From: a virus
Taxonomy: Duplodnaviria > Heunggongvirae > Uroviricota > Caudoviricetes
DNA: 9,382 bases
IMG/VR virus record: IMGVR_UViG_2740892235_000008
Direction: 5' to 3' (one strand)
In this document: piece after piece, positions 1 through 9,382 of the stretch
How positions within the stretch are numbered: the stretch's first letter is position 1
How the letters are laid out: every line of letters begins with the position of its first letter
The notes under the pieces: model-generated
Seen by the model: the letters and a program-made list of their open reading frames with translations, nothing else
What the model was told of the DNA's origin: nothing
Databases searched by the model: none
Position numbers and translations under genes: made by a program

Positions 1-688
1 AGGTACGGCTGTATCGTTCGCGCTGCTCGACGATCCCCAGCTTCGCCATCTGGTGATATGCCTGATTAGCCGTAAGGCGGATACCATACTGTTTCAGCAG
101 TGCACTCAGCGACAGTGTCGGGCGACTTGAGCCATCAGGCGCGTCAGCAGGAGCATCAATGGCATAGCGCGGTGCCAGATTCGGTAAGCCAACAGCCTCC
201 TGGAGTTTCTGACAGGCACCAAGCACTGATGAGTTAGACAGATTTAACTCCCGGCGCATAAAGTCCAGCAGAATCACGCCAGCCTGCATCTTGTCAGCAG
301 CCTGCCCGGATAATTTTTCCGGTGCGCTGGTTACCATGTCGAAAGTGCGGATCACCTTCAGATGGAATGACGGGCTGATCCACATTGCATAGGCATACAC
401 CAGTTCCTTACAGACATATGTTCCGCCATTCCGCCCTTCTATTTTACTGACAGGTTTACTACCCAAATTTTGGGTAGTTTCATTGAATGAACCGACACCC
501 AGATTTTGGGTATCGATCAATTCCTGAACCAGCTCAGTAATCTGTTGGCTGGAAAGAAACTTTCCCGGCTCCTTGGTTCTGGCATTTGCACCAGATGCTA
601 CTGCTGCGCGATGCAGATCGTTCAGGCTGTAACGTCCATAAGCATCACGACGAACTTCAATACCATCAATGACCATCAGATTATTCAT
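1..688 (-). CDS. KilA-N/Bro-N-type antirepressor-like protein, 3' end runs off the window start
   Basis: Hand translation of the reverse complement from ATG (686-688) is open to position 1 (about 229 codons, MNNLMVIDGIEVRRDAYGRYSLNDLHRAA...). AAGAGGAG Shine-Dalgarno lies about 8 nt upstream (complement of 696-703). Not in the ORF track because there is no in-window stop. Family assignment is from N-terminal resemblance as remembered. Confidence 0.6.
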   Translation of the reverse strand, partial: MNNLMVIDGIEVRRDAYGRYSLNDLHRAAVASGANARTKEPGKFLSSQQITELVQELIDTQNLGVGSFNETTQNLGSKPVSKIEGRNGGTYVCKELVYAYAMWISPSFHLKVIRTFDMVTSAPEKLSGQAADKMQAGVILLDFMRRELNLSNSSVLGACQKLQEAVGLPNLAPRYAIDAPADAPDGSSRPTLSLSALLKQYGIRLTANQAYHQMAKLGIVEQRERYSRT

Positions 689-707
689 ACTTCGTTTCTC
701 CTCTTAA

Positions 708-890
708 TCAGGCGGCTGCACCCGCCGTTTTCTCGTACTTACTGATAGTGATCTCGACCTTCCCTTCCGGGATAACCGGTCCCCACTCCACCAGCATTCT
801 TTTCACCTGGCTGTCGTCTTCCCACACACCCGCGTGGGTCAGGGCGTCAAACAGCGCCTTGTTATAGTTGTCCAGATCGCGGATCCGGTT
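708..890 (-). CDS. rusA: RusA Holliday-junction resolvase, C-terminal part (5' side cut by N gap; N-terminal part is at 1514-1801)
   Basis: Translation NRIRDLDNYNKALFDALTHAGVWEDDSQVKRM... with stop at 708-710. The RDLDN / FDAL / DD motif is typical of RusA. Bases 821-890 repeat 1524-1594 with one SNP, so the two pieces are the same gene split by the scaffold join. Confidence 0.75.
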   Translation of the reverse strand, partial: NRIRDLDNYNKALFDALTHAGVWEDDSQVKRMLVEWGPVIPEGKVEITISKYEKTAGAAA

Positions 891-900
891 NNNNNNNNNN
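891..900. other. assembly gap (10 N)
   Basis: Run of n characters; flanking sequence repeats 1524-1594. Confidence 0.95.
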
Positions 901-1137
901 TTTGCAGACATACGTCCCCTGGTTATTTCCGCCACGAATAACGTTAACTGGCTCTATATTGACCGAGTTGCAAATCTGCAACTCGCTTATTAAACGTTCA
1001 GTTTGCTCATTGCGGAGCCAGAATGCAGGCTTATGCTTATCCAGAGAACCGGCAGCCCTGTGCAGATCGTTCAGGCTGTAACGCCCATAAGCATCACGAC
1101 GAACTTCAATACCATCAATGACCATCAGATTATTCAT
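901..1137 (-). CDS. KilA-N-domain protein, second allele, N-terminal fragment bounded by gaps
   Basis: ATG at 1135-1137. Translation MNNLMVIDGIEVRRDAYGRYSLNDLHRAAGSLDKHKPAFWLRNEQ...GTYVCK: first 29 aa identical to the 1-688 gene, then divergent, then reconverging at GTYVCK. 1063-1140 nearly repeats 606-690. Confidence 0.5.
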
Positions 1138-1140
1138 ACT

Positions 1141-1150
1141 NNNNNNNNNN
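1141..1150. other. assembly gap (10 N)
   Basis: Run of n characters. Confidence 0.95.
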
Positions 1151-1297
1151 GCGTAACTGCTCAACTATTGCTGCACACGCCGCGCTCTGGAATTTGCGCC
1201 CCGCTGCGCTTATCAGGCTCTTACCAGCAAACGCCCCTTTGTTGGGGTGTCGCCAGTACGTGTTCACGCTGGGCGGAAAAGGCAGAATCAGCTTCAT
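1151..1297 (-). CDS. rusA: RusA N-terminal fragment, second allele
   Basis: ATG at 1295-1297, translation MKLILPFPPSVNTYWRHPNKGAFAGKSLISAAGRKFQSAACAAIVEQLR. Near-identical with SNPs to 1660-1801. Confidence 0.55.
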
Positions 1298-1503
1298 ACT
1301 TTCAGGCCCCTCTCATGTAACCAGTGGGCTGCACGCAGCCTGGCGTTTTCCTCACCGGCAAGCAGTGCGCGGATAATCCCGACCGCCTCGCTGTCGTCGT
1401 CCTTCACCGCGGTATGAAGCGTTATCCCCCGGGCCACGCCACGCTTTATCGTGATGACGCCTTTTTTCTCCAGTGCGCGAAGATGCTCCACCGCTGCATT
1501 CAC
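1294..1503 (-). CDS. LexA-DBD-like regulator, C-terminal fragment, second allele
   Basis: Translation VNAAVEHLRALEKKGVITIKRGVARGITLHTAVKDDDSEAVGIIRALLAGEENARLRAAHWLHERGLKV, stop 1294-1296 overlapping the RusA ATG (ATGA). SNP variant of 1798-2003. Confidence 0.5.
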   Translation of the reverse strand: MNAAVEHLRALEKKGVITIKRGVARGITLHTAVKDDDSEAVGIIRALLAGEENARLRAAHWLHERGLKV

Positions 1504-1513
1504 NNNNNNNNNN
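1504..1513. other. assembly gap (10 N)
   Basis: Run of n characters. Confidence 0.95.
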
Positions 1514-1801
1514 ACTGTCGTCTTCCCACACACCCGCGTGGGTCAGGGCGTCAAACAGTGCCTTGTTATAGTTGTCCAGATCGCGGATCCGGTTATCCGG
1601 AGGAAACAACACGATCTCCACTGAAGCAGGTGCCGACGTTGGTTTCGGCAGACGACGTAACTGCTCAACTATTGCTGTGCACGCCGCACTCTGGAATTTT
1701 CGCCCCGCCGCGCTTATCAGGCTCTTACCAGCAAATGCCCCTTTGTTGGGGTGTCGCCAGTAGGTGTTCACGCTGGGTGGAAAAGGCAGAATCAGCTTCA
1801 T
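1514..1801 (-). CDS. rusA: RusA Holliday-junction resolvase, N-terminal part (cut by gap)
   Basis: ATG 1799-1801; translation MKLILPFPPSVNTYWRH...VEIVLFPPDNRIRDLDNYNKALFDALTHAGVWEDDS. Start overlaps the upstream gene stop as ATGA, indicating translational coupling. Confidence 0.8.
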
Positions 1802-2124
1802 ACTTTCAGCCCCCTCTCATGTAACCAGTGGGCTGCACGCAGCCTGGCGTTTTCCTCACCAGCAAGCAGTGCGCGGATAATCCCGGCCACCTCGCTGTCG
1901 TCGTCCTTCACCGCGGTATGAAGCGTGATGCCCCGGGCCACGCCACGCTTTATCGTGATGACGCCTTTTTTCTCCAGTGCGCGAAGATGCTCCACCGCTG
2001 CATTCACTGAACGGTATCCCAGCATGGTAGCCACCTCCTGATTGGTTGGCGGGAAGCCACGTTCTTTCTGGTAAGAAATCAGCATATCCAGCACCTGCTG
2101 CTGGCATTGAGTTAACGTCGTCAT
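1798..2124 (-). CDS. LexA N-terminal DNA-binding-domain homolog (winged helix), no S24 peptidase domain, about 108 aa
   Basis: Translation from ATG 2122-2124: MTTLTQCQQQVLDMLISYQKERGFPPTNQEVATMLGYRSVNAAVEHLRALEKKGVITIKRGVARGITL..., which aligns closely to the remembered LexA DBD (…[65 protein letters not shown]). ATG overlaps the upstream stop (TAATG). The ORF-track start at 2157 is an unsupported upstream extension. Confidence 0.75.
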   Translation of the reverse strand: MTTLTQCQQQVLDMLISYQKERGFPPTNQEVATMLGYRSVNAAVEHLRALEKKGVITIKRGVARGITLHTAVKDDDSEVAGIIRALLAGEENARLRAAHWLHERGLKV

Positions 2125-2612
2125 TAAGCCCCCACGTAATTCCCTGACAGATACCACTCTTCACCCGATACAGCGCGCTTGCTGCTTTTCCGTAAACACC
2201 GCTCACGACGCGCAAGAAAATTGTTTCGCTCTTGCTGGGAGTGGCTTTCACGGAATGCCGCCATCCACACCGTTGCAGCACGACGGTATAAGCCCCTGGA
2301 CTCCAGTTCTTCCGCCTGGCGGGTCAGGCACAAAATCACCCGGGGATCGTTAGTGCCGACATAGAAATTGCGCACAGGTCTGGATTCACGAACTGGTTGC
2401 GGTTCCGGCTCCTGCGGTATCTCAGTCAGCCGCGGGAAATGTCTGCGTGTATCCCCTTCACAACGGTGAGCCACACGCCCACTCTGACGTAACTTGCTTG
2501 CTGACTGCAGAACGCGCTGTCGTGAGTAACCTGCAAAAGCATCCGCAATGTCTCCGGAAGTACACCCCGGATGGGCTTCAATGAATTTCTGAACGTCATT
2601 CAAAAGACTCAT
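2124..2612 (-). CDS. PerC/ANR-family-like regulator with an additional N-terminal domain, about 162 aa
   Basis: ATG 2610-2612 preceded by AGGGGG with about 5 nt spacing (GTG at 2616-2618 is the alternative). C-terminal LESRGLYRRAATVWMAAF...RRERCL matches the remembered PerC/Pch signature (GLWRRAA..W...RR..CL). Stop overlaps the next ATG. Confidence 0.5.
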   Translation of the reverse strand: MSLLNDVQKFIEAHPGCTSGDIADAFAGYSRQRVLQSASKLRQSGRVAHRCEGDTRRHFPRLTEIPQEPEPQPVRESRPVRNFYVGTNDPRVILCLTRQAEELESRGLYRRAATVWMAAFRESHSQQERNNFLARRERCLRKSSKRAVSGEEWYLSGNYVGA

Positions 2613-2614
2613 GA

Positions 2615-3794
2615 TCACCCCCTGAATCCTGCCGGGATCTGGCTGTAGTCCACATTGTCGTAACTGGCTTTGAAGTACGGGTCTTCGCGTTTTTCTGTGT
2701 ACGTGCTGACGGACGGCGATAAGCGCAGGGAAAGCTCATCCCATTTTTCCCGCAGCTTCGACGGGCTGAGCACGTTNNNNNNNNNNATTTGAAGTACGGG
2801 TCTTCGCGTTTTTCGGTGTACGTGCTGACGGACGGCGATAAGCGCAGGGAAAGCTCATCCCATTTTTCCCGCAGCTTCGACGGGCTGAGCACGTTACGGC
2901 ACCAGAACGGATCGCGGCTGACGCGGCTGTACATCTCGCAGATTTGTTTATGAGTACGACCATCCTGCACACACATCAGGCGAATTTCGTTTGCCCAGGC
3001 TGTCCAGTTCGGTTCTTTGGGACGAACCACCTCGCCGTCACATTCGGCAGCCTGCTCGTACAGGGCGATGATTTTTTTCCAGAACCACTGTGCGCAGGTC
3101 AAATCATCCTGCGTCCCCCACTGGCGTTTTTTAGGGCTGAATACAACCGCATCAGGATGGCGAGTTAAAAAATCCTGTTCAGCCGTCTGCGTGTCCGGTT
3201 GCGAAGAGTCCGGACGAGAAGGTTTTTTATCTGACGGATCATGTTTTGATTTTACTGACGGATCCCCGCCAGATTCTGACGGGTGAAAACCCGCTTTTTT
3301 GCCAGATTTCGACGCATCAAATTTTGACGGGTCAGATTTTGATGCGTCAGATTTTGACGGGTCAGAATCTGACAGTTGAGAAAATGCCGCTGCCTGAAGC
3401 TTCGCAACGTTAAGCTGATAAACATTCGACGCATTGCGGTTACCCTGGCGACGCGCCTTACGCGTTAACCAGCCTTCTGCTTCCAGCCGTGCGATAGCCG
3501 TTCTGACGGTACTCATCCCCGCGCCAATCTGGCGTGCAATGGTTTCAATCGATGGCCAGCACACACCTTCGTCATTACTGAAATCAGCCAGGCGGGCCAT
3601 AATTGCCACGCTGGATAATTTCATGCCTGANNNNNNNNNNAGCCAATCTGACGGGCAATGGTTTCAATTGATGGCCAGCACACACCTTCGTCATTACTGA
3701 AATCAGCCAGGCGGGCCATAATTGCCACGCTGGATAATTTCATGCCTGACGCTGCGCAACCATCCCATACATAGCCGGTTAATTTAGTGCTCAT
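2615..3794 (-). CDS. phage replication initiator, O-like (N-terminal wHTH, Ser/Asp/Lys-rich repeat linker, C-terminal domain); spans two scaffold joins with duplicated flanks
   Basis: ATG 3792-3794 with GAGG Shine-Dalgarno 7 nt upstream; translation MSTKLTGYVWDGCAASGMKLSSVAIMARLADFSNDEGVCWPSIETIARQIG... In-frame through segment 2787-3630. True stop TGA at 2615-2617 found by hand translation (…DPYFKASYDNVDYSQIPAGFRG). The ORF-track frame after the 2777-2786 gap is an artefact. Real gene length is shorter than the coordinate span because 2672-2776 / 2789-2896 and 3520-3630 / 3641-3751 are duplicated overlaps. Confidence 0.6.
2777..2786. other. assembly gap (10 N)
   Basis: Run of n characters; about 105 bp either side are near-identical direct repeats. 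Confidence 0.95.
3224..3377. repeat. iteron-like tandem array (15-bp period; consensus CAGATTTTGACGNGT; 5 contiguous copies at 3303-3377 plus degenerate copies at 3224-3284); candidate replication origin inside the initiator gene
   Basis: Direct reading: cagatttcgacgcat / caaattttgacgggt / cagattttgatgcgt / cagattttgacgggt / cagaatctgacagtt, plus cagattctgacgggt at 3270-3284 and two CTGACGGATC-containing units at 3224-3265. They encode the SDxSK pentapeptide repeats of the linker. Lambda ori iterons lie inside O in the same way (established knowledge). Confidence 0.5.
3631..3640. other. assembly gap (10 N)
   Basis: Run of n characters; 3520-3630 and 3641-3751 are near-identical with 3 SNPs. 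Confidence 0.95.
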
Positions 3795-3803
3795 GACCGA
3801 CCT

Positions 3804-4142
3804 CTATTTCCCTGAATTTACGACGAAACTGTTCGAGCGGGCTGAAGCACTCATGCTCATAGCCTTCGCGGAGGTAGATAACACGTTGTGTTTCCGGCTC
3901 CCAACGAATGACTCTGACGGGCACTCCGTAGTGATCTTTGAACCAGCGGTTAACTTGTCGCAAAGGACTGTCTCCTTCTGCCGGTTGAAATCACCCACAG
4001 CCCACTCTGCAAAGCTGTGGGTTACAATTTCCCTGTCACCTGGTACATTTACTGCATAGCAATACTCCACCTTCGCTTTTCCACCCGGTACAGGAAGCGC
4101 AATCAGTTGCGAGCGACGGTAGTGTGTTGTTAAACTGTTCAT
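3804..4142 (-). CDS. hypothetical protein (112 aa) between cII-like and replication genes
   Basis: ORF-track ORF; ATG 4140-4142 overlaps the upstream stop as ATGA; stop is 9 nt before the replication gene ATG. Same strand as the whole operon. No recognisable family. Confidence 0.4.
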
Positions 4143-4690
4143 GCGTTAGTTTCTCCACAGTCACGACACGCCACGGCGCCCGGAGCTGCACACTCGCGGG
4201 CGTCACTACTTTCTGAAACGCAAAAGATTTTGTAGACCAGTGCTGCATGCTCCTGCAGCTTCGAAATTGAGAGGTACAGCTCATCGTTAATTGCTGTCTT
4301 CTCATGCGGTTCCACTACACCGTCTTCAATTGCTGAACGAATCTGTTTTGAATAACTGCCGATCTGTTCAATGACCTCCAGCAGGCGTTGGTTGATATCG
4401 GCGTTGTCCACATCCTCGACATCAGGAAGAGACACAAAGACGCCATTTGCAGACTGCGCCACAGCGTCAGCAATGAAGTGAGTTCCACCAGCACGTTGCA
4501 AAATCATTGCCCATCCCAGCGGGAAAATCTGATCGCCATCGGCACGAAGGCGGTTAAATAATGCGTTCTCTGTTACATCCAGCCAGTCAGCAGCTTCAGC
4601 GTACCCCCCCGGCAACGCTGCGATAGTTTTTCTGACAGCTTTCACGTACCACTCAGGCTGTTTTTCTACTTTCCAGTGATGCTTACCCAC
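4139..4690 (-). CDS. cII-like early regulator (HTH-containing, 183 aa)
   Basis: GTG start 4688-4690 preceded by a perfect AGGAGG with 6 nt spacing. Sits immediately downstream of the cro-like gene. Remote cII-like HTH pattern in …[19 protein letters not shown]. Function inferred from position and weak pattern. Confidence 0.55.
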
Positions 4691-4943
4691 GGTTCACCTC
4701 CTGTTCCTGTGGTTTAAACCCATTCTGGTTTTGGCTAGATTGAAAACGTGCCGGATAAAGAATCTGCATTTCGCTGACTTCACCCTTAAAAAAATTGGCT
4801 AAACGTTCTGCAAGCTCGATAGATGGAATCTGCTCCAGCCTCTCAATACGACTCAACGTCGCTGGATTGACTTGAACACCCGCAGCAACATGCTGCAAAG
4901 TGAAACCATGCGCCTTACGCACATTTCGTAATGGTGATTGCAT
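4683..4943 (-). CDS. cro: Cro-like XRE-family HTH repressor (86 aa), immunity module 1
   Basis: ATG 4941-4943 with GGAGGG Shine-Dalgarno; translation MQSPLRNVRKAHGFTLQHVAAGVQVNPATLSRIERLEQIPSIELAERLANFF is a typical HTH_3 fold. Divergent from the cI-like gene across a 97-bp operator region. Confidence 0.7.
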   Translation of the reverse strand: MQSPLRNVRKAHGFTLQHVAAGVQVNPATLSRIERLEQIPSIELAERLANFFKGEVSEMQILYPARFQSSQNQNGFKPQEQEVNRG

Positions 4944-5040
4944 ATGCCCTCCAAATATTGCGCGTTATGCATGTTATTTCACGCAATTATTTTGCGCAAG
5001 TTGATTTGCTTATCACGCAATAAAGAAATGTAATAAACGC
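4944..5040. promoter_or_regulatory. divergent promoter/operator region (OR/PR/PRM-like) of immunity module 1
   Basis: Between divergent cro-like and cI-like starts. Contains dyad TTGCTTATCACGCAA (5006-5020), a weaker TTGCGCGTTATGCAT (4958-4972) and the palindrome CGCAATTATTTTGCG (4982-4996). Possible PR toward cro: -35 TTGCGC, -10 TAACAT read on the minus strand. Confidence 0.55.
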
Positions 5041-5733
5041 ATGAACATAGGAAACCGAGTCAGACAACTTCGCCAAGCGAAGAACATGAAAATCGCCGAT
5101 CTCGCTGAAGCGATAGGAGTAGATGCGGCGAACATCTCGCGCTTAGAAACGGGTAAGCAAAAACAATTTACCGAACAAACACTGAGTAATATTGCCAGGA
5201 GCTTAGGTGTTGATATTGCTGATCTCTTTACCTCTGCCCACAAAAGTAATACTGTATATAAAAACAGTAATAATGAGGATGTTGCGCAGGTGAAGGATGT
5301 GTTCCGTATTGAAATGCTGGATATCAGTGCCAGTGCGGGAAATGGCCTTATCCAGGGCGGTGATGTCATTGATGTGATTCATGCCATCGAATACAGAACT
5401 GATAATGCTGTATCAATGTTCGGCGGACGACCAGCCAATCACATCAAAGTTATCAACGTTCGTGGGGACAGTATGTGTCCAACCATTGAGCCCGGAGATC
5501 TCATCTTCGTTGATGTCAGCATCAATCAGTTTGATGGTGATGGTATATATGTCTTTGGTTTTGATGACAAAATATACGTTAAAAGACTTCAAATGATTCC
5601 TGACAAACTGCTGGTGATTTCTGATAACCAGATTTACCGTGAATGGGGAATTACTAGCGAAAACGAACACCGATTCATGGTCTTTGGAAAGGTCTTAATC
5701 AGTCAGTCGCAAACCCTTAAGAGACATAATTAA
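5041..5733 (+). CDS. cI: CI-like phage repressor (N-terminal XRE HTH, C-terminal S24/LexA-type autopeptidase), 230 aa
   Basis: Translation has HTH (VRQLRQAKNMKIADLAEAIGVDAANISRLETGK), a candidate Ala-Gly cleavage site (ASAGNG) and the S24 catalytic motifs GDSM … KRL. Stop TAA 5731-5733. Confidence 0.9.
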   Translation: MNIGNRVRQLRQAKNMKIADLAEAIGVDAANISRLETGKQKQFTEQTLSNIARSLGVDIADLFTSAHKSNTVYKNSNNEDVAQVKDVFRIEMLDISASAGNGLIQGGDVIDVIHAIEYRTDNAVSMFGGRPANHIKVINVRGDSMCPTIEPGDLIFVDVSINQFDGDGIYVFGFDDKIYVKRLQMIPDKLLVISDNQIYREWGITSENEHRFMVFGKVLISQSQTLKRHN

Positions 5734-5742
5734 CCTCAATAT

Positions 5743-5765
5743 CCCATCCATCGGCCACCGAAAGG
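5743..5765 (+). terminator. rho-independent terminator downstream of cI-1
   Basis: GGCCACC-GAAA-GGTGGC hairpin followed by TTTTT (ggccaccgaaaggtggcttttt). Confidence 0.7.
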
Positions 5766-5777
5766 TGGCTTTTTATT

Positions 5778-5828
5778 ACCTATAAATTTGCATATCTCGC
5801 AAATATCACTTGCATATCTCGCAATTTA
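5778..5828 (+). promoter_or_regulatory. candidate OL/pL of module 1: two 15-bp direct repeats TTGCATATCTCGCAA (5778-5792, 5800-5814) overlapping a sigma70-like promoter (-35 TTGCAT 5800-5805, 17-bp spacer, -10 TATCTT 5823-5828)
   Basis: The repeats share the TTGC-N7-GCAA dyad and 13 of 15 bases with the OR site 5006-5020, consistent with the same repressor binding at both. Spacing of the two copies is 22 bp. Confidence 0.45.
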
Positions 5829-5920
5829 ATTTTATCTTTTGTTCCAGACCAACTACAGGATTACAACAAAATCTGGTTGCAACACGGTGCATGTGTCGTA
5901 AGCAGTCAGTAAATGTCAAA

Positions 5921-5985
5921 AACGAACAGGCAGGACGCCCACGAAGTAGCCGCCGGTGGCGTATGAATGACCGGATGATTCGTTA
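5921..5985 (+). ncRNA. conserved 65-nt structured element, copy 1 (candidate cis-acting leader RNA, nut/put-like, or small RNA)
   Basis: Same 65-nt sequence as 8186-8250 except in a 20-nt core. Outer inverted repeat AACGAA…TTCGTT. Inner stem CCGGT(N12)ACCGG here versus CCTGG(N12)CCAGG in copy 2, i.e. two compensatory base-pair changes preserve the stem. Confidence 0.4.
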
Positions 5986-6009
5986 AATACTATGTGTAAG
6001 AGAGCGCAA

Positions 6010-6213
6010 ATGAACCGTTATTTCACATGCTCGTTTTGTGGCGCAAACGAGCTGCAGGCAAAAAAAATCATCGCCAAAGGCGGAAAAGATGAAGTTGCTA
6101 TCTGCTCTGAGTGCGTAGTCTTGTGTGTCGGGGCATTAATCAATAGCAGCACAACTATTCGGTTCACACCAAATGAGAATGCGCCTTTAGATGCGCGGAA
6201 ATCTGGAGGTTAA
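6010..6213 (+). CDS. small ClpX-type C4 zinc-finger (ClpX N-terminal ZBD-like) protein, about 67 aa
   Basis: Translation MNRYFTCSFCGANELQAKKIIAKGGKDEVAICSECVVLC… matches the remembered ClpX N-terminal zinc-binding signature ([33 protein letters not shown]). Purine-rich AAGAGAG 5 nt before ATG 6010; the ORF-track ATG at 5992 has no Shine-Dalgarno. Confidence 0.55.
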   Translation: MNRYFTCSFCGANELQAKKIIAKGGKDEVAICSECVVLCVGALINSSTTIRFTPNENAPLDARKSGG

Positions 6214-6221
6214 AGAACAAA

Positions 6222-6497
6222 ATGAAAGTCCAGATTTTAAACAATAGTGGTGAAGTCGTTTGGTCATACGACATAGCCGCTCCTGTAGATCAGAGCGGCG
6301 ATAGCTGGACCAATGGGAAACATCAGATTATGGCTGGAGTTGTATTCTCTTTACGCCGTGCTTTGGAACAGGCTGAAGTCTTTCCATCAGACCCTGAATG
6401 GAAATGGCCTTTTTCTATTTGTCCAAATTCGGAGAGTACATTTCAGAAAATTGGTCAGAAAGTCGCACTCGAAGAGCATCAGCCAACTGTTTCCTGA
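6222..6497 (+). CDS. hypothetical protein (91 aa)
   Basis: ORF-track ORF. GGAGG at 6205-6209 but with 12-nt spacing to the ATG. Its 3' 83 nt overlap the convergent ORF at 6415-6660, so the true extent of one of the two is uncertain. Confidence 0.4.
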   Translation: MKVQILNNSGEVVWSYDIAAPVDQSGDSWTNGKHQIMAGVVFSLRRALEQAEVFPSDPEWKWPFSICPNSESTFQKIGQKVALEEHQPTVS

Positions 6498-6660
6498 TTT
6501 TTTCAGGTAACTCGTCGGCATCGCAGAAACAACAACGCTCGATCATGTTGAAAGCCGATTCGTAGAACTGTTTCTGCTGAGTGTCGCTGAGACAGGAAAA
6601 GAGCGACGTTACGATGATTTTATTAATTGCATTATCAAGTTCTTTTTCATCAAAAGTCAT
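6415..6660 (-). CDS. hypothetical protein (81 aa), convergent to the preceding ORFs
   Basis: ATG 6658-6660 with AAGGA Shine-Dalgarno about 7 nt upstream (revcomp of 6661-6680 is atacataaaaggaaaatcaa). Protein-like composition with a CCFCD motif. Confidence 0.45.
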   Translation of the reverse strand: MTFDEKELDNAINKIIVTSLFSCLSDTQQKQFYESAFNMIERCCFCDADELPEKIRKQLADALRVRLSDQFSEMYSPNLDK

Positions 6661-6689
6661 TTGATTTTCCTTTTATGTATACGGGCTTA

Positions 6690-6803
6690 AAAGGATACCA
6701 CCGAGCCTGAAGTGGTGAAAAGACAGGCACATAACAGCTAAGTATTTTCAACCAGAGAGAATCCTTAGCGTTGTGGTGAATGCGGCTCAGCGCACGCGGG
6801 TTA
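6690..6803. repeat. conserved right-flank element, copy A (6725-6803 identical to 8930-9008; 6690-6724 similar with SNPs to 8896-8929)
   Basis: Direct comparison of the two stretches; copy A is truncated by the gap at 6804. Confidence 0.6.
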
Positions 6804-6813
6804 NNNNNNNNNN
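6804..6813. other. assembly gap (10 N)
   Basis: Run of n characters. Confidence 0.95.
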
Positions 6814-7128
6814 TTCCAGCAGGCGTTGGTTGATATCGGCGTTGTCCACATCCTCGACGTCAGGAAGAGACACAAAGACGCCATTTGCAGACTGCGCCAC
6901 TGCGTCAGCAATGAAGTGAGTTCCACCAGCACGTTGCAAAATCATTGCCCATCCCAGCGGGAAAATCTGATCGCCATCGGCACGAAGGCGGTTAAATAAT
7001 GCGTTCTCTGTTACATCCAGCCAGTCAGCTGCTTCAGCGTAACCACCCGGCAACTTTGCGATAGTTTTTCTGACAGCTTTCACGTACCACTCAGGCTGTT
7101 TTTCTACTTTCCAGTGATGCTTACCCAC
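6814..7128 (-). CDS. cII-like regulator, second copy, N-terminal part (3' end cut by gap)
   Basis: GTG 7126-7128 with GAGG Shine-Dalgarno 6 nt upstream; translation nearly identical to 4139-4690 (one A to K change seen). 6814-7128 repeats 4376-4690. Confidence 0.55.
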
Positions 7129-7165
7129 GGTTAGCCTCATCGTTCTGTGGTTTCTGTTAATCGAT

Positions 7166-7366
7166 TTATCCATTAGATTTTTCATAAAGCTCAGGTTTAA
7201 ATGGCAACCGTCCGCAAGTTCTATATGCAGCTTCTGCTGCACGTCCTTTTGGAATTAACTGGCCCGGACGGTTTCGCCACTGATAAACGGCTTCAGTTGT
7301 TATGCCGAAAAAAGCAGCAACTTTCTCAATACTGCCGAAGTAGCTTTCGATATCGTCAGTTGTCAT
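7166..7366 (-). CDS. cro: Cro-like small HTH protein (66 aa), immunity module 2
   Basis: ATG 7364-7366 preceded by TTTGGAGGGCGT, the same leader as cro-1. Translation …SIEKVAAFFGITTEAVYQWRNRPGQLIPKGRAAEAAY is a Cro/YdaS-type HTH pattern. Divergent from cI-2. Confidence 0.65.
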   Translation of the reverse strand: MTTDDIESYFGSIEKVAAFFGITTEAVYQWRNRPGQLIPKGRAAEAAYRTCGRLPFKPELYEKSNG

Positions 7367-7463
7367 ACGCCCTCCAAACTAAGTTTTGTTAGATGCTAAT
7401 TACAAATCTATCTTTGGTCAATAAAAACTAAGATTACTTAGCAATTAAAGAAATGGTGCTCCT
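7367..7463. promoter_or_regulatory. divergent promoter/operator region of immunity module 2
   Basis: Contains 14-bp dyads CTAAGTTTTGTTAG (7379-7392) and CTAAGATTACTTAG (7428-7441); consensus CTAAG-N4-sTTAG, unrelated to the module 1 operator motif. Confidence 0.5.
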
Positions 7464-8090
7464 ATGGAAACGGTTGGTCAGCGTATAAAAGCTCTGAGAA
7501 GAGTTACCAGAACGTCCCAGAAAGAATTGGGTAAATTTTGTGGAGTAAGCGACGTTGCTGTGGGGTACTGGGAGAAAGACATCAATACCCCTGGCGGGGA
7601 GGCACTTTCGAAATTAGCGAAGTTCTTCAATACGTCAATAGATTACATTCTTTATGGTGCTGAGTTTGAAGGCAAACTCGTCACAAACATGCGCAGAGTT
7701 CCTGTAATATCGTGGGTTCAGGCTGGGCAGTTTACTGAGTGCAGGGCAGCAGAAGTGTTTAGTGAAGTGGACAAGTGGGTAGATACATCATTAAAGGTTG
7801 GTGATAACTCATTTGCATTAGAGGTTAAAGGTGACTCCATGACTAACCCTAATGGCCTCCCAACAATACCAGAAGGCGCAACAGTGATTGTAGATCCAGA
7901 TGCAGAACCTCGTCATGGAAAAATAGTCATCGCTCGACTTGATGGAACAAACGAAGCTACAGTAAAAAAATTAGTCATCGATGGCCCTCAAAAGTTTTTA
8001 GTGCCATTAAATCCTCGGTATCCCAACATCCCTATCAATGGTAATTGCCTTATCATTGGTGTAGTCAAAGGAGTTCAATACGAACTCTAA
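7464..8090 (+). CDS. cI: CI-like phage repressor 2 (HTH plus S24 autopeptidase), 208 aa
   Basis: Translation has HTH (IKALRRVTRTSQKELGKFCGVSDVAVGYWEKD) and the S24 motifs GDSM … KKL. Sequence is unrelated to cI-1 apart from fold-level motifs. Confidence 0.9.
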   Translation: METVGQRIKALRRVTRTSQKELGKFCGVSDVAVGYWEKDINTPGGEALSKLAKFFNTSIDYILYGAEFEGKLVTNMRRVPVISWVQAGQFTECRAAEVFSEVDKWVDTSLKVGDNSFALEVKGDSMTNPNGLPTIPEGATVIVDPDAEPRHGKIVIARLDGTNEATVKKLVIDGPQKFLVPLNPRYPNIPINGNCLIIGVVKGVQYEL

Positions 8091-8112
8091 GATCTCTCTT
8101 CTCTAACTAAGG

Positions 8113-8145
8113 CACCGAACTAAGAAAAGTTTGGTGTTTTCTCTT
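8113..8145 (+). terminator. rho-independent terminator downstream of cI-2
   Basis: CACCGAAC-(8-nt loop)-GTTTGGTG, an 8-bp stem with one G-U pair, followed by TTTTCTCTT. Confidence 0.55.
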
Positions 8146-8172
8146 GCCATGATAACTAAGTTAAGTTAGATT
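8144..8172 (+). promoter_or_regulatory. candidate OL/pL of module 2: -35 TTGCCA (8144-8149), 17-bp spacer containing operator CTAAGTTAAGTTAG (8156-8169), -10 TAGATT (8167-8172)
   Basis: The operator matches the module 2 OR dyad consensus; promoter hexamers read directly. Confidence 0.4.
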
Positions 8173-8185
8173 TTATATCAAAGAT

Positions 8186-8250
8186 AACGAACAGGCAGGA
8201 CGCCCACGAAGTAGCCGCCTGGGGCATATGAAGTCCAGGATGATTCGTTA
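8186..8250 (+). ncRNA. conserved 65-nt structured element, copy 2
   Basis: See copy 1; starts only about 6-8 nt after the predicted pL2 transcription start. Confidence 0.4.
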
Positions 8251-8254
8251 GCAA

Positions 8255-8279
8255 CAAAAAAGCGCCCTACAGGACGCTT
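8255..8279 (-). terminator. rho-independent terminator for the convergent cargo gene (possibly bidirectional)
   Basis: On the minus-strand RNA: AGCGUCC-UGUA-GGGCGCU (7-bp stem, one G-U) followed by UUUUUU. On the plus strand the same hairpin has one C-A mismatch. Confidence 0.65.
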
Positions 8280-8317
8280 AGCTCTTTAACAATCAGGATA
8301 TCCACAACAGTAGTAAT

Positions 8318-8809
8318 CTACAGATTGCCGTTAAGTTTTCTGGACAACTCCTCAATGGATGGAGGCGATACGTAATCCGGATTTTTATTCATCAGAAACT
8401 TATTTTCACAGTGGAGGCACCTGCTTTTATGAAAAAGCTCATCTTCGCTAACCGGGAATGGTTGAAGTATCGATACTATCTTTTGTCCAAAACATTTTGG
8501 GCAAAGATGCATGGTTATGCTGCCACCGTTCACGATTACCTCCTTCGAGTATACAAAAGTACCCGACTCAAGTTGGTTAAGGATATAGCCTTCCGTCTGA
8601 GCCTCAAAGTTTTCGAATTCTGCAATTTTAGCTTTGAGAGAAGCATTTATTTCTTGATAAGAGCCCACCAGTTCAACGAGAGACACGCATTCGCGCTGAA
8701 TAGACGCAAGCTTTGAGTTCAGCTCACCAATAGCCGCATTTACTTCAGCTTGAGTTTTTGCCTCGTTCATTAGTTTTGCAATCTGGGCTGTTTCACGAAT
8801 AGCCGTCAT
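8318..8809 (-). CDS. hypothetical cargo protein, about 163 aa: N-terminal predicted coiled coil, C-terminal CxxC…CxxC zinc-ribbon-like motif
   Basis: In-frame ATG 8807-8809 (MTAIRETAQIAKLMNEAKTQAEV…) is the first start downstream of the shared flank; the ORF-track start at 9097 would read through the shared flank. The Shine-Dalgarno is weak and a later ATG at 8768-8770 (MNEAK) is possible. C-terminal …HLCPKCFGQKIV…CLHCENKF…; stop 8318-8320; own terminator at 8255-8279. Confidence 0.5.
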   Translation of the reverse strand: MTAIRETAQIAKLMNEAKTQAEVNAAIGELNSKLASIQRECVSLVELVGSYQEINASLKAKIAEFENFEAQTEGYILNQLESGTFVYSKEVIVNGGSITMHLCPKCFGQKIVSILQPFPVSEDELFHKSRCLHCENKFLMNKNPDYVSPPSIEELSRKLNGNL

Positions 8810-8847
8810 TGCTGCCGTTAATTCAGCGATCACATTGAATACTCTTA

Positions 8848-8901
8848 TTGTTGTTGGGGATATCCAGATTAACCGAATCCTTGTTGTTGGGGAATAACCA
8901 G
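8848..8901. repeat. two about 20-bp direct repeats TTGTTGTTGGGGA(T/A)A(T/A)CCAG (8848-8867, 8881-8901) upstream of the cargo gene start
   Basis: Direct reading. Lies in the putative promoter region of the minus-strand gene, 33-bp period. Confidence 0.5.
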
Positions 8902-9008
8902 GTCCACCTCGCCTGATGTGGCTAAAAGCAGGCACATAACAGCTAAGTATTTTCAACCAGAGAGAATCCTTAGCGTTGTGGTGAATGCGGCTCAGCGCAC
9001 GCGGGTTA
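8896..9008. repeat. conserved right-flank element, copy B
   Basis: 8930-9008 identical to 6725-6803; preceding about 34 bp similar with SNPs. Confidence 0.6.
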
Positions 9009-9120
9009 AGGTTGAGGCTGACAGTCGACCTTCTGTGGATACCCACCCGCCTGGTGTGCAACCTTCGCCAGGCACCGGGAGGCACCCGGCACCACAACTT
9101 TATGCTGTGTGTAGTCCTGG

Positions 9121-9166
9121 CGGTACCAGTTTGTACCCTTGCTTCCGGCTGGTACCGTCCTTTTTT
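9121..9166 (+). terminator. large hairpin plus T-tract (CGGTACCAG-N19-CTGGTACCG then TCCTTTTTT); candidate plus-strand terminator
   Basis: 9-bp perfect inverted repeat followed by a T6 run. An allelic copy at 9258-9304 keeps the stem and carries a CTCTTTTT tract. Confidence 0.5.
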
Positions 9167-9247
9167 GCAAAACAGAGAAGAGCATCACCGGACGACGGGC
9201 TCATAACCCAATCCATCCGGGCGGCTGCCACCGCAGGTGTTCTTCTC

Positions 9248-9257
9248 NNNNNNNNNN
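9248..9257. other. assembly gap (10 N)
   Basis: Run of n characters; 9119-9247 and 9258-9382 are near-identical. Confidence 0.95.
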
Positions 9258-9382
9258 TGTACCAGTTTGTACCCTTGCTTCCGGCTGGTACCGCTCTTTT
9301 TACAAAACAGAGAAGAGCATCACCGGACGACGGGCTCATAACCCAATCCATCCGGGCGGCTGCCACCGCAGGTGTTCTTCTC

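Follow-up and report, generated by a model that had tools for sequence, protein, structure and literature searches.

The window, meaning the whole 9,382-nt stretch of DNA that was analysed, is very probably a scaffold or pseudo-contig of eight contigs assembled from short reads, which belong to a pair of similar prophages in a single E. coli strain. The repeats beside its gaps and the genes read across these gaps are assembly artefacts, not biology, and its N runs are linkers of fixed length, not measured gaps. The argument was built on close relatives instead of the sequenced isolate. Reference loci came from the complete E. coli RM9245 chromosome (NZ_CP044314.1): prophage A (L001), which is of the e14 type and adjoins icd, and prophage B (L002), which is of the DLP12 type and adjoins tRNA-Arg/intD on the same chromosome. 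Gene names follow the RefSeq annotation of the 99.9-100% identical loci. All features are listed in Table 1.

Table 1. Contigs, genes, linkers and repeats of the window (A and B, prophages A and B; variant site, position exactly 80 nt before the 3' end of the contig).
Feature	Position	Strand	Origin	Remarks
S1	1-890		A	99.9% (1 mismatch) to L001 5654-6543 = NZ_CP044314.1 4042783-4043672; variant site 810
KilA-N gene without C-terminal end (S1)	1-688	-		
RusA, C-terminal part (S1)	708-890	-		
Linker 1 (10 N)	891-900		A to B	false adjacency
S2	901-1140		B	100% to L002 6019-6258
KilA-N, B copy, N-terminal fragment (S2)	within 901-1140			
Linker 2 (10 N)	1141-1150		B to A	false adjacency
S3	1151-1503		A	100% to L001 6604-6956; 96.0% to L002
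RusA, N-terminal part (S3)	1151-1297	-		
LexA-family regulator, C-terminal part (S3)	1294-1503	-		
Linker 3 (10 N)	1504-1513		A to B	false adjacency
S4	1514-2776		B	99.9% (1 mismatch, at 1559) to L002 6378-7639 = NZ_CP044314.1 3292634-3293895; variant site 2696
RusA without C-terminal end (S4)	1514-1801	-		
LexA-family regulator (S4)	1798-2124	-		
PerC/YfdN (S4)	2124-2618	-		
Replication-initiator-like helix-turn-helix (HTH) gene, C-terminal part (S4)	2615-2776	-		
Linker 4 (10 N)	2777-2786		B to B (S4/S5)	sole true adjacency; real gap negative
S5	2787-3630		mostly B-type	99.8% to L002 7532-8374; 98.7% to L001; variant site 3550
HTH replication-initiator-like gene, internal part (S5)	within 2787-3630			
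Linker 5 (10 N)	3631-3640		B-type end to A-type start	108-bp homologous overlap doubled, 3 mismatches
S6	3641-6803		A	99.9% (3 mismatches) to L001 9001-12163 = NZ_CP044314.1 4037163-4040325; variant site 6723
HTH gene, N-terminus (S6)	3641-3794	-		
DUF4222 (S6)	3784-3963	-		
ymfL (S6)	4139-4690	-		
cro-like gene (S6)	4683-4943	-		
cI-like XRE/S24 repressor (S6)	5041-5733	+		
ClpX-type zinc-finger protein (S6)	5992-6213	+		
Hypothetical gene (S6)	6222-6497	+		
Linker 6 (10 N)	6804-6813		A to B	false adjacency
S7	6814-9247		B	100% to L002 9001-11434 = NZ_CP044314.1 3288839-3291272; variant site 9167
ymfL without C-terminal end (S7)	6814-7128	-		
cro (S7)	7166-7366	-		
cI-like LexA-family repressor (S7)	7464-8090	+		
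Hypothetical gene (S7)	8318-8833	-		
Frameshifted ORF, start only	end of S7			
Linker 7 (10 N)	9248-9257		B to A	joins S7 to S8
S8	9258-9382		A	100% to L001 12278-12401; 96.8% to L002; variant site 9302
Repeat	811-890 vs 1515-1594			80 bp, 1 mismatch, E-value 5e-36 (self-BLAST)
Repeat	612-691 (S1) vs 1061-1140 (last 80 nt of S2)			80 bp, 1 mismatch
Repeat	1152-1503 vs 1656-2007			352 bp, 96.0% identity, E-value 1e-166
Repeat	2669-2776 vs 2788-2895			108 bp, 1 mismatch
Repeat	3523-3630 vs 3642-3749			108 bp, 3 mismatches
Repeat	4377-4715 vs 6815-7153			339 bp, 96.2% identity
Repeat	6698-6803 vs 8904-9008			106 bp, 94.3% identity
Repeat	9123-9247 vs 9259-9382			125 bp, 96.8% identity

The seven N runs are all of the same length, as arbitrary linkers are, and bound eight contigs (S1 to S8). 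When the window was compared with itself by BLAST, the flanks of every run (80-352 bp) recurred elsewhere in it at 94-99% identity, which is far beyond chance. Some of the repeat units stand apart from their partner, not side by side. The earlier note had described the 10-N runs as flanked by nearby repeats with SNPs; this was borne out for 7/7 runs, and the four coordinate pairs that it gave as examples were correct to within 1-10 bases. Missing from these examples were two internal repeats of greater length (352 and 339 bp).

Contigs S1, S3, S6 and S8 were assigned to prophage A (99.9-100% identity) and S2, S4, S5 and S7 to prophage B (99.8-100% identity). At informative sites, A-type alleles were found at 146/147 positions of S1 and 15/15 positions of S3, the latter being the paralogue of S4 1655-2007, and S8, from A, is paralogous to the final 125 nt of S7 (9123-9247). 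The best matches of the joined contigs thus lie in two prophages that are ~743 kb apart in NZ_CP044314.1, and for this reason the adjacency is false at six of the seven junctions, S4 and S5 alone being true neighbours. This agrees with the warning in the earlier note that adjacency across the N runs is unreliable. At the S4/S5 junction, L002 7532-7639 is covered by both contigs, and these 108 bp are written twice. In homologous coordinates, the contigs of the two prophages interleave (A, B, A, B, B, A, B, A) and are sorted by their midpoints, not strictly by start or end: S2 falls inside the span of S1, and S7 begins at the homologue of position 4376 in S6. This order fits either reference-guided or paired-end placement. 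Of prophage A, roughly 2 kb (L001 6957-9000, including the methyltransferase gene) are absent from the window; relative to prophage A, S4 lacks a methyltransferase insert of ~650 bp. Positions 12164-12276 of L001 were found only inside S7, and a near-identical 1.5-kb zone (2787-4376) is represented once only.

According to the RefSeq annotation, both loci carry the divergent pair of a cI-like gene (HTH and S24 peptidase) and a cro-like gene that characterizes lambdoid early/immunity regions, together with YmfL, the HTH replication-like gene, PerC, RusA, KilA-N and Q antiterminators. The immunity region of S7 (prophage B) differs from that of prophage A. Gene families and gene order match those of the E. 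coli K-12 elements e14 (icd site), DLP12 (argU site) and CPS-53 and of phages SfV and ST64B, the shared families being ymfL, yfdN/PerC, RusA, KilA-N, DUF4222 and the divergent cI-like/cro-like pair. The flanks of the reference loci match as well, with intE/xisE beside icd (A) and intD, essD, rrrD, rzpD, bor and quuD beside tRNA-Arg (B). In contrast to the decayed K-12 remnants, both reference loci have complete complements of early, lysis and integration genes, and their early modules are ~96-100% identical to each other.

The contig ends are placed as is typical of a de Bruijn graph whose k is near 81. In seven of the eight contigs, the 3' end lies exactly 80 nt past the last difference from the paralogue. 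The 3' end of S8 coincides with the end of the window, and that of S3 lies 80 nt past position 1423 and 77 nt past 1426, its last difference from S4. Moreover, each contig from S3 to S8 begins on a variant base. A simple graph with two copies is fitted poorly by the 77-nt distance in S3 and by the terminal 80 nt of both S1 and S2, which each show one mismatch to their partner, and S4 has a T at 1559 that is absent from both RM9245 copies; these misfits would call for SNPs specific to the strain or for a third related copy. The 80-nt rule offers a quick, read-free test for joins of this kind in other windows.

Two contigs are mosaics of A-type and B-type alleles. The informative sites of S5 read A at three positions, all in the first ~165 nt, and then B at eleven, whereas those in the 5' part of S6 read A (four), B (three) and A (19), the three mismatches of S6 to L001 all being B-type alleles at 3753-3883. 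The exact haplotype of neither contig was present among the complete genomes, where the best matches had one mismatch (S5) and three mismatches (S6); JNE131328 is within one mismatch of S5. These mosaics may reflect chimeric contigs or natural variation. It is unlikely, though conceivable, that the switching in S5 and the 5' part of S6 records a real, recent gene conversion between two resident prophages instead of a consensus artefact and, at the extreme, that some junctions belong to a real icd/argU prophage recombinant.

If the flanks were genuine short tandem duplications and the N runs small real gaps, gaps 4, 5 and 7 would be the natural examples, as 108, 108 and 125 bp, respectively, are repeated directly across the Ns in the window. 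The remaining four gaps show no tandem arrangement at all, and the copies bear SNPs diagnostic of A versus B. Each flank unit was single copy in 23/23 ungapped related prophage loci. A 1341-nt query over gaps 4 and 5, expected to span 1105 nt if both 108-bp overlaps were single copy, spanned 1100-1118 nt in 28/28 full-length matches, sampled evenly over the ranking among 1576 complete E. coli records. Contiguous tandem copies of the flanks were seen neither in the 23 ungapped loci nor in the sampled complete genomes, in every one of which the units collapse. As written, duplication plus linker (118 nt) also frameshifts an otherwise intact gene for a protein of 313 aa. Merging S4, S5 and S6 with their overlaps collapsed restored this HTH protein at 313/313 identity, and joining the tail of S1, 60 nt present only in S4 and the head of S3 yielded the exact RusA of prophage A (129 aa). 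There are 14 ORFs of 50 aa or more that extend across an N run; the largest (342 aa, 2596-3624, minus strand) consists of residues 18-296 of the real 313-aa protein and 63 aa of out-of-frame junk. Genuine tandem duplication is therefore an explanation with next to no probability, and two further statements of the earlier note, that the flanks are duplicated contig ends and that gap-crossing ORFs are artefacts, are upheld.

A real hybrid prophage, or a rearrangement by recombination between resident prophages in which A and B truly alternate, deserves as little credence. Lambdoid prophages are mosaic and do recombine, and the allele switches in S5 and the 5' part of S6 could be read in this sense. 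However, both versions of the same interval are present in three places (S3 and S4 1655-2007; S6 4376-4715 and S7 6814-7153; S8 and the end of S7), genes are cut at every N run, and the 80-nt rule links the breakpoints with k-mer length instead of biology. More serious, but still very improbable, is the view that the two versions are alleles of two distinct strains or phages that were sampled together (in a metagenome or a contaminated culture), in which case the scaffold would still be an artefact. Concatenation with 10 Ns is in use for viral bins from metagenomes (PMC11498083), and the mosaics S5 and S6 lack an exact match in any complete genome. Against this view, S6 (99.7-99.9% identity) and S7 (100%; also identical in seven other complete genomes), the largest contigs of the A and B sets, respectively, occur together in eight complete chromosomes, including RM9245, at two integration sites 0.73-0.82 Mb apart, and the same two loci of RM9245 also take the remaining six contigs. 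One genome is thus enough for all eight contigs. The proposal in the earlier note that allelic or repeat contigs were joined end to end therefore holds as to the joining, whereas the copies appear not to be alleles but paralogous prophages of a single chromosome.

For a scaffold of two prophages, the following origin is proposed. The source strain would be close to the RM9245 / O113:H21 FWSEC0010 group of E. coli, a lineage that carries two paralogous lambdoid prophages, A of the e14 type at icd and B of the DLP12 type at tRNA-Arg, with early-region modules 96-100% identical and different immunity cassettes. This similarity would have defeated a short-read de Bruijn-graph assembler (k about 81), leaving it unable to separate the stretches common to A and B. 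Copy-specific branches would have come out as short contigs of their own, which end 80 nt (k-1) inside shared sequence, and shared stretches only once, some of them as A/B mosaics. A later step, perhaps paired-end scaffolding, the ordering of contigs along a reference or the concatenation of a bin, would then have strung the eight pieces together by homologous position with fixed 10-N linkers, so that the duplicated flanks would represent overlapping or paralogous contig ends. We infer the assembler, the joining step and the presence of both prophages in one genome, not two strains, from these patterns.

Collapsed or branching repeats in short-read de Bruijn-graph assemblies joined with N linkers resemble the window in their fixed N length, paralogous or overlapping ends with SNPs, ends k-1 nt past a variant, shared stretches that appear once and branch contigs of 125-353 bp. 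The window departs from this class in that its contigs are interleaved by homologous position, not simply adjacent, and in the few ends that misfit a strict two-copy graph. The MVP pipeline, in which multi-contig viral bins are joined up by 10-N linkers for CheckV, likewise places exactly 10 Ns as an arbitrary linker between contigs of unproven adjacency (PMC11498083); the order by homologous position seen in the window is not guaranteed by plain concatenation. No viral, genome or metagenome contig contained a pattern that spans a junction (19 nt + 10 N + 22 nt), and a 61-mer specific to S4 matched 21 IMG/VR contigs, with N runs in 0/21; the source of the window was not among them. The value of these results is confined to quality control. 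Across the seven N runs, gene calls, gene order and deduced repeats or duplications should be discarded, and the window is best treated as pieces of two separate prophages.

A scan of the whole window against Rfam at gathering thresholds gave no match, also for a conserved structured element of ~65 nt that was observed 3' of both repressor genes. Homology of this element to the put RNA of HK022 was considered and rejected, its covariance model having no match in HK022 20000-32000 at E <= 10. Iteron-like 15-nt repeats were observed in S5 at 3303-3377.

The repeated flanks and the joins across the N runs of the window are an assembly artefact, not a real biological feature. The stretch is divided into eight segments (S1-S8) by seven runs, each exactly 10 N long, and self-BLAST of these segments showed that both flanks of every run recur elsewhere in the window, with E-values of 1e-36 to 1e-166 (see table). 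The earlier note, which described N runs flanked by nearby repeats with SNPs, was borne out for all seven runs, and its repeat coordinates were right within a few bases. The 10-N spacer itself is an arbitrary linker. Some scaffolders place a fixed artificial gap of 10 N where neighbouring contig ends fail to merge. Spacers of 10 N are also used to concatenate multi-contig viral bins (PMC11498083).

In 143 complete E. coli genomes, S6 was matched at a coverage of 80% or more, the best matches (99.9% identity) being RM9245, JNE120393, RM10466, O113:H21 FWSEC0010 and others. S7 was 100% identical to the best-matching genomes of S6, at another chromosomal position, and S4 mapped adjoining S7. For segment mapping, both loci were taken from RM9245 (NZ_CP044314.1): prophage A (L001), bounded by intE/xisE and icd at the e14 integration site, and prophage B (L002), which occupies the DLP12 integration site, has intD and tRNA-Arg as its borders and carries essD, rrrD, rzpD, bor and quuD. 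A and B lie ~743 kb apart in RM9245, and S6 and S7 are separated by 0.73-0.82 Mb in seven other close genomes. Since the segments map to two distant loci, the window order is A,B,A,B,B,A,B,A, an interleaving of contigs from two paralogous prophages by homologous position, with monotonic midpoints. The underlying biology is ordinary and known, namely two lambdoid prophages drawn from the e14/DLP12/CPS-53/SfV/ST64B gene pool, which differ in immunity cassette and are carried by a Shiga-toxin-producing E. coli (STEC) lineage resembling O113:H21.

Coordinates of N runs, segments, repeat pairs and further features of the window
Feature	Window coordinates	Strand	Prophage coordinates (RM9245)	Length, identity or detail	Last variant
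10-N runs	891-900, 1141-1150, 1504-1513, 2777-2786, 3631-3640, 6804-6813, 9248-9257				
S1	1-890		A 5654-6543	1 mismatch	810
S2	901-1140		B 6019-6258	100% identity	1060
S3	1151-1503		A 6604-6956	100% identity	
S4	1514-2776		B 6378-7639	1 mismatch	2696
S5	2787-3630		B 7532-8374	2 mismatches	3550
S6	3641-6803		A 9001-12163	3 mismatches	6723
S7	6814-9247		B 9001-11434	100% identity	9167
S8	9258-9382		A 12278-12401	100% identity	9302
Repeat pair	811-890 / 1515-1594			80 bp, 1 mismatch	
Repeat pair	612-691 / 1061-1140			80 bp, 1 mismatch	
Repeat pair	1152-1503 / 1656-2007			352 bp, 96.0% identity	
Repeat pair	2669-2776 / 2788-2895			108 bp, 1 mismatch	
Repeat pair	3523-3630 / 3642-3749			108 bp, 3 mismatches	
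Repeat pair	4377-4715 / 6815-7153			339 bp, 96.2% identity	
Repeat pair	6698-6803 / 8904-9008			106 bp, 94.3% identity	
Repeat pair	9123-9247 / 9259-9382			125 bp, 96.8% identity	
Largest gap-crossing ORF	2596-3624	-		342 aa	
~65-nt element	5921-5985 and 8186-8250	+		also loci L024-L029, L031-L107	
Helices of ~65-nt element				P1 A(A/G)CGAA / TTCG(T/C)T; P2 GGC/GCC; P3 5-bp stem, four covarying pairs	
Prophage-A operator-like repeats	5788-5824 and 5887-5901				

The claim that adjacency across the N runs is unreliable was upheld at gaps 1, 2, 3, 6 and 7 (numbered 5' to 3'), where an A contig meets a B contig or the reverse in false adjacencies. At gap 5, the B-type end of S5 is followed by the A-type start of S6, with a 108-bp homologous overlap written twice. 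Gap 4 (S4|S5) is the sole true adjacency among the seven, and its true size is -108 bp, both contigs containing B 7532-7639. Where the two copies are identical, some parts of each prophage are found only in a contig of the other: A 6544-6603 only as S4 1595-1654, and A 12164-12276 only as S7 9009-9121. A 6957-9000 (~2 kb of L001) is absent from the window, with contigs from either side present; it holds the N-terminus of a LexA-family gene, an N-6-adenine methyltransferase gene (found in prophage A, not in prophage B), perC and most of the helix-turn-helix (HTH) replication-initiator-like gene, and may lie on another scaffold or be missing from the source strain.

ORFs reading through the gaps had been called artefacts, and this held: 14 ORFs of 50 aa or more read across N runs, and the largest is part real and part out-of-frame. 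From its start to residue 279 it equals residues 18-296 of the real 313-aa HTH replication-initiator-like protein, after which come 63 residues of out-of-frame read-through; a duplication and its linker together add 118 nt each time (1 mod 3). With the S4, S5 and S6 overlaps collapsed, a 313-aa ORF was restored that is identical to the B protein at 313/313 residues. Joining the S1 tail, a 60-nt bridge and the S3 head likewise gave the exact RusA of prophage A.

Genuine tandem duplication of the flanks is contradicted by two results. Every flank unit was single copy in 23/23 ungapped loci containing that unit (the two RM9245 loci and 21 IMG/VR prophage contigs). In addition, a literal query over gaps 4 and 5 (window 2560-3900, 1341 nt), predicted to span 1105 nt if both 108-bp units were single copy and ~1321-1341 nt if tandem, matched 1576 complete-genome records at a coverage of at least 80%, and its three pieces spanned 1100-1118 nt in all 28 rows sampled evenly down the ranking at that coverage. 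Together with the two-locus mapping and the gene restoration, the single-copy flanks show that the artefact diagnosis was correct. As to its origin, the distance from the last position differing from the paralogue to the contig 3' end is exactly 80 nt in 7 of the 8 contigs, and the first base of each of S3 to S8 is a variant base. The contigs would be edges in the graph of a de Bruijn assembler with k-1 = 80, whose branches would have been output as far as the shared (k-1)-mer; we infer a k of about 81. In the zone of 98.5% identity, isolated SNPs were apparently collapsed into a single path. Compared with RM9245, the alleles run A,A,A then B x11 in S5, and A x4, B x3, A x19 in S6, and the exact haplotype of either was found in no complete genome searched. 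Since one complete genome lies within 1 mismatch of S5, natural variation or gene conversion may also account for the switching.

Some points depart from a simple two-copy pattern. At window 1559, S4 carries a T, against C in the S1 overlap and in both RM9245 copies. A further 21 IMG/VR prophage contigs share this T together with its 61-nt context, and it may come from a third related copy or be a SNP of the strain. S1 and S2 each differ from their partner at one position within their last 80 nt, and S3, which ends 80 nt past variant 1423 but 77 nt past variant 1426, misses the 80-nt rule by 3 nt. All of these would be accounted for by strain-specific SNPs or a third related copy.

On the early-left operon strand, each cI-like repressor gene is followed after ~100-190 nt by a structured element of ~65 nt. 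Its two window copies are 89% alike, in otherwise unrelated immunity regions, and the 27 nt of its core (CAGGCAGGACGCCCACGAAGTAGCCGC) are invariant. It is present in one copy per genome among phages of Escherichia, Shigella, Salmonella, Yersinia, Pectobacterium, Pantoea and other genera (Enterobacterales), including the named temperate phages SfII, SfV, SfIV, ST64B, ZF40, mEp460, YeP1 and AH07 (at the same position in ZF40, SfV, ST64B, AH07 and YeP1), and is unannotated in every phage found with it; an exact 25-nt core is present in >120 IMG/VR contigs. A three-helix fold is backed by covariation: with loci chosen for an exact core match and an alignment fitted to the model, 97.3% of cells were paired in 67 distinct sequences (slid controls, at most 46%), seven pairs showed changes on both sides (117 cells), and 98.1% of cells were paired in 11 hand-picked sequences. 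The element had no Rfam match, its covariance model gave no hit in the HK022 put region, and the literature searched did not print its core sequence. A promoter-like site of prophage B (8144-8172) would put it at the extreme 5' end of the early-left (pL) transcript. One hypothesis is that it serves as a cis-acting 5' leader RNA of the pL operon, for antitermination or transcript stability.

An 81-aa ORF (6415-6660, minus strand) overlaps the 3' end of a hypothetical gene (6222-6497) and is without annotation in the 99.9% identical RefSeq locus. Inside the HTH gene, iteron-like direct repeats of the TGACGGGTCAGATTTTGA type (window 3232-3377, 15-nt period, five copies) encode the repetitive peptide SDSDPSKSDASKSDPSKFDASKS, an arrangement resembling that of lambda, where gene O contains the origin iterons. 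The operator-like TTGCATATCTCGCAA is present downstream of the repressor gene of prophage A in two exact copies 22 nt apart and a third, 73% copy; in prophage B, AAACTAAGTTTTGTTAG and AAACTAAGATTACTTAG are found in the interval from cro to the cI-like gene (7376-7441). These repeats are probably the operators of the two immunity specificities.
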